A stretch of 206 bases of DNA, from assembly GCF_003334255.1 (NCBI RefSeq), contig NZ_QOWU01000284.1, one strand, 5' to 3'. The position numbers and the translations under genes are program-made. The notes under the pieces are model-generated. The model had not been told where the DNA came from. It made no database searches and worked only from the letters and a program-made list of their open reading frames with translations. Source of the DNA: Escherichia coli (GTDB taxonomy: Bacteria > Pseudomonadota > Gammaproteobacteria > Enterobacterales > Enterobacteriaceae). Shown here one piece after another: positions 1-206 of this stretch; position 1 is the stretch's first letter; the number at the start of each line of letters is the position of its first letter.

Positions 1-206
1 TTCAACCGGCAGGTGCCGATCAGCCCGTACAACAGTGCACCACGCTCGCCGCCGTGATCGCTACCGAAGAACACGTAATTTTTCTTTCCGAGACAGACTG
101 CACGAAGCGCTCTTTCCGCTGTGTTATTGTCCGCCTCCGCCAGACCGTCATCACAGAAGTTGCACAACGCAACCCAGTGCTTCCTGATATACCGGAACGC
201 ATCTCT
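1..206 (-). CDS. IS66-family transposase (TnpC/orf3-type DDE transposase), internal fragment; partial at both ends. Codon phase: first complete codon is 206..204, last complete codon is 5..3.
   Basis: Seen in sequence: the reverse-complement frame starting at position 206 has 68 sense codons with no stop and no Met, translating to RDAFRYIRKHWVALCNFCDDGLAEADNNTAERALRAVCLGKKNYVFFGSDHGGERGALLYGLIGTCRL. Established knowledge: the blocks DNNxAERALR, G(K/R)KN(W/Y)xFxGSDxGGER and LIGTC are conserved in the C-terminal part of the catalytic region of IS66-family transposases. No homology search was run. The gene is conventionally called tnpC in three-ORF IS66 elements, but I cannot identify the specific IS, so the symbol is left empty. 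Confidence 0.85.
1..206 (-). mobile_element. Internal portion of an IS66-family insertion sequence; element ends, inverted repeats and target-site duplication lie outside the window.
   Basis: Inference from the transposase CDS spanning the window. No terminal inverted repeat or direct repeat is visible in the window, so completeness and boundaries cannot be assessed. Confidence 0.7.

Follow-up and report, generated by a model that had tools for sequence, protein, structure and literature searches.

The window (the whole stretch of DNA that was analysed, 206 nucleotides) is very probably an internal piece of the transposase gene tnpC of ISEc43, or of a recombinant element with the ISEc43 right-hand part. 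ISEc43 is an already catalogued, ordinary, cargo-free insertion sequence of the IS66 family from Enterobacteriaceae, and a 206-bp internal fragment of such an element says nothing about its neighbours and is of little consequence in itself. The original prediction, which had read the locus as mobile or accessory DNA with possible cargo in the flanks, proved a reasonable generic statement about IS66 elements with one geometric error and was partly supported. It was also nearly right in seeing no sign of a novel system in the window itself, but the latter holds the codons of the catalytic motifs and a target site of a second insertion sequence, ISEc45.

Identity and reading frame of the window

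Frame 0 of the minus strand was open from end to end of the 206-base window, while both other frames of the coding strand held stops. The coding content is as follows:

Positions 3..206, minus strand: internal fragment of tnpC, codons R433 to L500 of 537 of the ISEc43 DDE transposase.
Positions 2-1, minus strand: first two bases of codon 501.

The 68-residue product of this frame, RDAFRYIRKHWVALCNFCDDGLAEADNNTAERALRAVCLGKKNYVFFGSDHGGERGALLYGLIGTCRL, matched the Pfam domain DDE_Tnp_IS66 (E=8.3e-16, model positions 231-283 of 284, the last 53) and the NCBIfam family transpos_IS66 (E=3.6e-22, positions 305-371 of 387). At the nucleotide level and within the window, the identity to genes annotated as 'IS66-like element ISEc43 family transposase' was 100% (206/206 nt). 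Copies of the window with at least 99% identity were present in 406 complete E. coli genome records and in 137 plasmid records, Salmonella plasmids included. Comparison with the relatives that were 84-87% identical gave substitutions in a ratio of 37:21:75 on codon positions 1:2:3, the pattern that purifying selection on a gene read in minus-strand frame 0 would produce. Taken together, the open frame, the domain matches, the identity and the substitution bias indicate that the observation of an IS66-family tnpC read from right to left, as originally predicted, was real and that its strand was assigned correctly.

Other coding possibilities and functional signals were rejected. The substitution pattern fitted frame 0 only and neither of the two alternative open reading frames (60 aa on the minus strand and 50 aa on the plus strand), and the stops in the other frames of the coding strand were present in all relatives compared. 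A structured RNA in the window was discarded on a fold z-score of -0.24 and on the Rfam search, in which neither the window nor the whole element gave a match at E<=1; the counts of internal promoters and terminators were at the level of shuffled sequences. Frame 3 of the plus strand over window positions 1-206 (4915-5187 and 4970-5227 in record L003) was free of stops in ISEc43 and in all relatives compared, which probably reflects the in-register antisense openness that codon usage commonly brings about.

Anatomy of the ISEc43 element

The anatomy of the element was taken from identical copies elsewhere, and its limits were placed where homology between independent copies was lost (L001 to L003); in these three unrelated records the window lay at the same place within a conserved block. 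The length of ISEc43 defined in this way is 2,541 bp. Its features are listed below in gene orientation, with window positions extrapolated where they fall outside the window:

Element 86-520, window +1880..+2314 (extrapolated): tnpA, 144 aa, helix-turn-helix.
Element 517-867, window +1533..+1883 (extrapolated): tnpB, 116 aa, IS66 accessory protein.
Element 898-2511, start at window +1502 and stop at window -111..-109 (extrapolated): tnpC, 537 aa.
Element 2194-2399: the window, TnpC residues 433-500 of 537.
Window -141 (extrapolated): tnpC-proximal IS end, reading GTAAGCGTCAACGG..., 142 nt before window position 1.
Window +2399 (extrapolated): the other IS end, reading ...CTTTACGCTTAC, 2,193 nt after position 206.

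The genes tnpA and tnpB overlap by ATGA, and a 30-nt spacer separates tnpB from tnpC. The order tnpA-tnpB-tnpC was seen in all full-length copies sharing the window that were examined, and in every full-length identical copy tnpA and tnpB were indeed located beyond position 206, where they had been expected. The geometric error concerned the opposite side, to which the rest of tnpC and one IS end had been assigned: the IS end is there, 142 nt away, but only 112 nt of tnpC (37 codons) and a further 30 nt up to this end remain past position 1. Most of the gene, 1,296 nt (432 codons, about 80%), is on the other side, past position 206.

In gene orientation the left end of ISEc43 reads GTAAGCGTAAAG... 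and the right end ...GTTGACGCTTAC. The suggested check for terminal inverted repeats revealed, in the identical copies, imperfect repeats that both start with GTAAGCGT (5'-GTAAGCG) and match at approximately 17 of 26 positions. Together with the short ends, tnpA, tnpB and tnpC take up all 2,541 bp and leave no space for a passenger gene, which contradicts the idea of cargo bracketed by the IS ends.

The proteins of the identical copies scored 448 bits (TnpC) and 119 bits (TnpB) against NCBIfam cutoffs of 180 and 50, respectively. TnpA, with 68 bits, stayed just under both NCBIfam TnpA cutoffs (74); it has an HTH_Tnp_1 domain and is annotated merely as 'transposase'. The Pfam domains of TnpC included LZ_Tnp_IS66 (coiled coil), zf-IS66, DDE_Tnp_IS66 (residues 196-486; E=1.2e-95 for the full protein from identical copies) and a short C-terminal DDE_Tnp_IS66_C. 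Every structural hallmark of the IS66 family that was examined was present in the ISEc43 copies elsewhere.

Catalytic motifs encoded by the window

TnpC was aligned with 87 homologues of 33-48% identity from a family of approximately 44,000 representative clusters. The window carries the best-conserved stretch of the protein, the D458..R467 block followed by the G472..S481 motif:

Positions 102..131, minus strand: D458-N459-N460-T-A-E463-R464-A-L-R467, conserved 'DNNxxER..R' block.
Positions 116-114, minus strand: codon of E463, which probably completes the catalytic triad D268/D332/E463.
Positions 60..89, minus strand: G472-K-K-N475-Y476-V-F478-F-G480-S481 motif, family consensus G-R-K-N-W-L-F-A-G-S.

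Among the 87 homologues three acidic residues of TnpC were near-invariant (D268 in 100%, D332 in 99% and E463 in 98%), as were C355 and H358. The conservation within the second motif was 92% for G472, 99% for R/K473, 98% for N475, 93% for F478 and 97% for G480. TnpC has a predicted DDE triad on an RNase-H fold, and both the fold and the conservation of E463 make this residue the likely third member of the triad. As E463 and both of the family's most conserved motifs are encoded by the window, the latter belongs to the catalytic core. A sequence search for a solved structure of an IS66-family relative found none.

Target duplications and transposition

Target duplications were analysed in 27 full-length copies with 99.5-100% identity, which occupied 24 distinct sites on plasmids and chromosomes in a sample biased to long contigs. 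Perfect 8-bp duplications, for which a check had been advised, flanked the element at 20 of the 24 sites; one further site had a 7-bp duplication and three had none. The 7-bp case (L020, 5104-7644) is a copy flanked by the repeat CTTAAAT instead of the usual 8 bp. The full-length copies without any duplication were those in L001, at the site shared by L002 and L008, and in L030, which suggests later recombination or adjacent deletion at these places. Most of the sampled copies had their full length, undamaged reading frames and a perfect duplication. The ISEc43 insertion published for SGI1-B-Ec1 is likewise flanked by an 8-bp repeat (PMC6531882), and 8 bp is the duplication length reported for IS66 itself (PMC6778807).

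In the proposed mechanism TnpC, aided by TnpA and TnpB, would recognise the imperfect terminal inverted repeats, and the acidic triad D268/D332/E463 would cut at both ends and transfer them to a target opened with an 8-bp stagger, the repair of which would produce the 8-bp duplication. All three gene products are reportedly needed for the transposition of IS66-family elements. A donor-retaining, copy-out/paste-in-like pathway is favoured for ISEc43 with roughly even confidence, because donor copies persist and the copy number reaches approximately 20 per chromosome, and also because ISCth4, with which TnpC is compared below, uses copy-out/paste-in. The chromosome of the ETEC strain 214-4 (NZ_CP025840.1) is a case of IS expansion: it has 19 left ends of ISEc43 type, 36 places that resemble the window, and insertions in core genes.

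Genomic contexts of ISEc43

According to our own reading of the neighbouring genes, and in the same sample biased to long contigs, the 24 sites included six on plasmids, twelve in islands, at prophage borders or in other insertion sequences, and six at which the element was solitary in the core chromosome, for example between fliC and fliD, within the gene of an amino-acid permease and beside dmsC. Of the 1,156 ISEc43-type left ends in complete E. coli genomes, 945 (82%) were chromosomal. The statement that IS66-family elements are common on plasmids and islands therefore held, both for the 137 plasmid records and for the 6 plasmid and 12 island-type sites, and a mobile or accessory locus is probable from 18 of the 24 sites. 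On the other hand, a solitary element among core genes, the very finding named beforehand as refuting that view, did occur at the remaining six, and most left ends were chromosomal; the accessory context of the window is likely, not assured. An exact match to the window was found in plasmids, islands, prophage borders, core genes and mosaic elements alike, so such a match by itself permits no conclusion about accessory surroundings or cargo.

Several individual sites deserve description. In the chromosome of strain 214-4 (L023, one of the loci L023-L026) ISEc43 interrupts the gene of an amino-acid permease, of which pieces of 103 and 394 aa are left. In an NCTC strain (L010, 5104-7644) the element occupies the fliC-fliD intergenic region with the perfect duplication GCTGTTCG, where it could affect flagellin or cap expression. 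In a CP4-like island (L022, 5104-7644; duplication GTTTATCC) it is inserted between the cbeA antitoxin and the cbtA toxin genes and separates the pair. Another copy with an intact duplication, CATCAGAC (L012, 5104-7644), marks the boundary between Mu-like prophage genes (gam, gemA, mor) and a chromosomal ABC-transporter operon, and the copy in L030 adjoins IS26 and blaCTX-M-32 in a Salmonella IncF plasmid.

A composite transposon with ISEc43 copies as its arms, or a pair of copies bracketing accessory or novel cargo, was the arrangement anticipated by the original prediction, and it is highly improbable. Accessory neighbours do exist (blaCTX-M with IS26, SPATE toxin genes, a Tn7-like element and toxin-antitoxin islands), as do plasmids with multiple copies, but no second ISEc43 was present within 4-6 kb at any of the 24 sites, the element has no internal cargo, and the private 8-bp duplications at 20 of the 24 sites identify solitary insertions. 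The composite arrangement was also looked for across the whole plasmid p214_4_132 and was not found: the neighbour 3 kb away is a 92% relative inserted in a resolvase gene, and its own duplication, CTTTCTGA, makes it an independent insertion.

A landing site of ISEc45 in the window

A further feature of the window lies within the second conserved motif:

Positions 66..89, plus strand: unoccupied ISEc45 target site, GAAGAACACGT/AATTTTTCTTTCC, with the cut between 76 and 77 inside codon Y476.

The cut was placed between 76 and 77 by means of the 7-bp/3-bp terminal-extension rule of IS1111 elements (rules from PMC11187229). In four loci (L031, L032, L033 and L036) ISEc45 splits ISEc43 at one and the same phosphodiester, with the arrangement ...GAAGAACACGT-ISEc45-AATTTTTCTTTCC...; in the window the site is intact and hence unoccupied.

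A sample of 13 ISEc45 copies was drawn from the whole breadth of the ranking (loci L031-L041, L002 and L008), and 12 of them were found at the homologous point of five IS66-family tnpC sequences, those of ISEc43 and of four others. The orientation of these 12 copies was always the same, there was no duplication and only one junction base was ambiguous, while their flanks varied as GAAGAACA-YRW / ARTTYTTYTTYCC. The target motif in tnpC is G-K/R-K-N-Y/W-x-F, with the site 13 codons after the catalytic glutamate. The 13th copy was inserted into a non-IS66 site resembling the target pattern. The target duplications of the host ISEc43 copies are not the same (GGATATTT and TAGCGTCT), and between the ISEc45 copies inside them there is a difference of 2.6%, which shows that the ISEc45 insertions were independent events. 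The IS66-ISEc45 junction was present in 761 E. coli records, compared to 625 records with a near-full-length ISEc45.

By its hallmarks ISEc45 is an element of the IS1111 group (IS110 family). Its recombinase has the Pfam domains DEDD_Tnp_IS110 and Transposase_20 (L008), the 9-bp sub-terminal repeat is ATGACCTTT, the terminal extensions are 7-bp AGATGRT and 3-bp AAG, and a 251-nt non-coding region (NCR) with a predicted fold of z=-2.31 is located downstream of tnp. A predicted TTGACA-17-TATGAC promoter would span the ends of ISEc45 if they were joined. Durrant et al. enter the element in their supplementary data under 'IS1111, RE', with its bridge RNA at the right end.

On this basis window positions 66-89 may be a natural RNA-guided attachment site of ISEc45, which would then be specialised to insert in and inactivate IS66-family tnpC; we put this forward tentatively, at somewhat less than even likelihood. 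The parts putatively recognised by the guide are GAAGAAC and TTTTTCTTTCC. The longest Watson-Crick plus GU duplex between the ISEc45 NCR and the target had 8 nt and was equalled in 293 of 300 shuffles, exact k-mer sharing between the two was no better than in shuffles, and the Rfam search for an ISEc45 guide RNA matched no family.

No description of ISEc45 targeting IS66 tnpC was found in the searchable literature, and neither ISEc45 nor IS66 is named in the main text of PMC11187229 or of the bridge-RNA paper. Judging from titles and the openings of abstracts, the nine papers naming ISEc45 appear to be resistance or genome surveys. If indeed unreported, the landing site is a new example of known behaviour. 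The proposed role, if true, would make ISEc45 a second, independent IS-on-IS parasite aimed at a catalytic-core coding sequence, and the five tolerated target variants with the one off-target site would form a natural set for its guide code. As a natural guide-and-target system the ISEc45/IS66 pair would be of modest value to the bridge/seekRNA recombinase field. The site also accounts for the approximately 215-bp remnants annotated as 'transposase domain-containing protein' beside an IS110-family gene in hundreds of E. coli genomes.

Remnants and mosaic elements

A dead remnant, that is a truncated, IS-interrupted or flank-lost copy unable to move by itself, is an unlikely source, although such copies were certainly encountered: L013 lacked the first 417 bp, L031-L033 and L036 were split by ISEc45 (L033 additionally by an IS3-family element), H117 and H137 were split by IS2 and IS421, the tnpB in L002 was frameshifted, and three sites had no target duplication. 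They were outnumbered in the sample by full-length copies with intact frames and perfect duplications, and the window itself is uninterrupted by any stop codon or frameshift.

Less probable still is the origin of the window from a recombinant IS66-family element, in which the right part of tnpC would be of ISEc43 type and the left end, tnpA, tnpB and the 5' part of tnpC would come from another isoform, such as ISEc23. One such mosaic was seen in plasmid p214_4_132 (L016, about 12405-14936; NZ_CP025841.1, about 112,405-114,936): before ISEc43 coordinate ~2098 its sequence is 100% ISEc23-like, from 2098 to 2541 it is 100% ISEc43, and it holds a second exact copy of the window. Its structure suggests that isoforms have recombined or undergone gene conversion. 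The number of records with at least 99% identity was also slightly higher for the window (406) than for the ISEc43-type left end (369), although the near agreement of these counts speaks for linkage of the two. This mosaic was the only one seen, and all 27 full-length copies recovered via the window or via TnpC identity were ISEc43 from end to end. Because the exact window occurs also in a mosaic with an ISEc23-like left part, it does not by itself settle which tnpA lies upstream.

Short right-end remnants of IS66-family elements formed a separate set of observations (H83-H88 and H98-H100). They covered positions 1-159 in the K-12 lineage, 1-203 in Stx2a phages, where they bore a methylase annotation, and 1-215 elsewhere. 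The class of approximately 215 bp ends at the ISEc45 site.

Comparison with known systems

ISEc43, the ISfinder name used by NCBI PGAP, is 100% identical to the window and no difference could be detected within it; its copies elsewhere have the same three-gene layout, GTAAGCG ends, 2,541 bp and 8-bp duplication. ISEc23, IS682 and other E. coli isoforms of the IS66 family have the same architecture and are 84-97% identical to ISEc43 over tnpB and tnpC; ISEc8 and IS679 also belong among the E. coli isoforms of this architecture. In the ISEc23/IS682-type isoforms residues 452-500 of the protein are nearly identical to those of ISEc43, while the DNA of the window is only 84-87% identical. Insertion sequences with at least about 95% nucleotide identity are by ISfinder convention isoforms, a criterion applied here to the window only, and the values of 84-87% to the other isoforms against 100% to ISEc43 make the window ISEc43-type. 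The first ~447 bp of ISEc43 (left end and tnpA; L003 6953-7399) are only ~50% identical to those of ISEc23 (L014/L015), a modular swap.

A more distant counterpart is the transposase of ISCth4 (IS256/Mutator family, PDB 6xg8), which has 13% identity to TnpC. ISCth4 is a single-ORF insertion sequence without TnpA and TnpB, and the additional N-terminal coiled coil and zinc finger are found in TnpC.

The closest parallel to the landing site is the insertion of ISEc21 into IS3, where an insertion sequence with an RNA-guided DEDD recombinase naturally targets a conserved coding sequence in the catalytic core of another IS family, and inserts in one orientation and without duplication (PMC11187229, 2024). 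The insertion of ISEc45 into IS66 tnpC resembles it in its catalytic-core coding target, its single orientation and the lack of a duplication. Unlike ISEc21, however, ISEc45 belongs to the IS1111 group, with the NCR downstream of tnp, 9-bp sub-terminal repeats and 7/3 extensions. The victims differ as well, an IS66-family element with the site 13 codons after the catalytic E for ISEc45 and an IS3 with the site at a D for ISEc21. The IS1111-group elements IS4321 and IS5075 are said to target the terminal repeats of Tn21-family transposons. They are similar to ISEc45 in being members of the same group with a fixed position and orientation in another mobile element, but their target is a non-coding terminal repeat, while that of ISEc45 is a coding motif.
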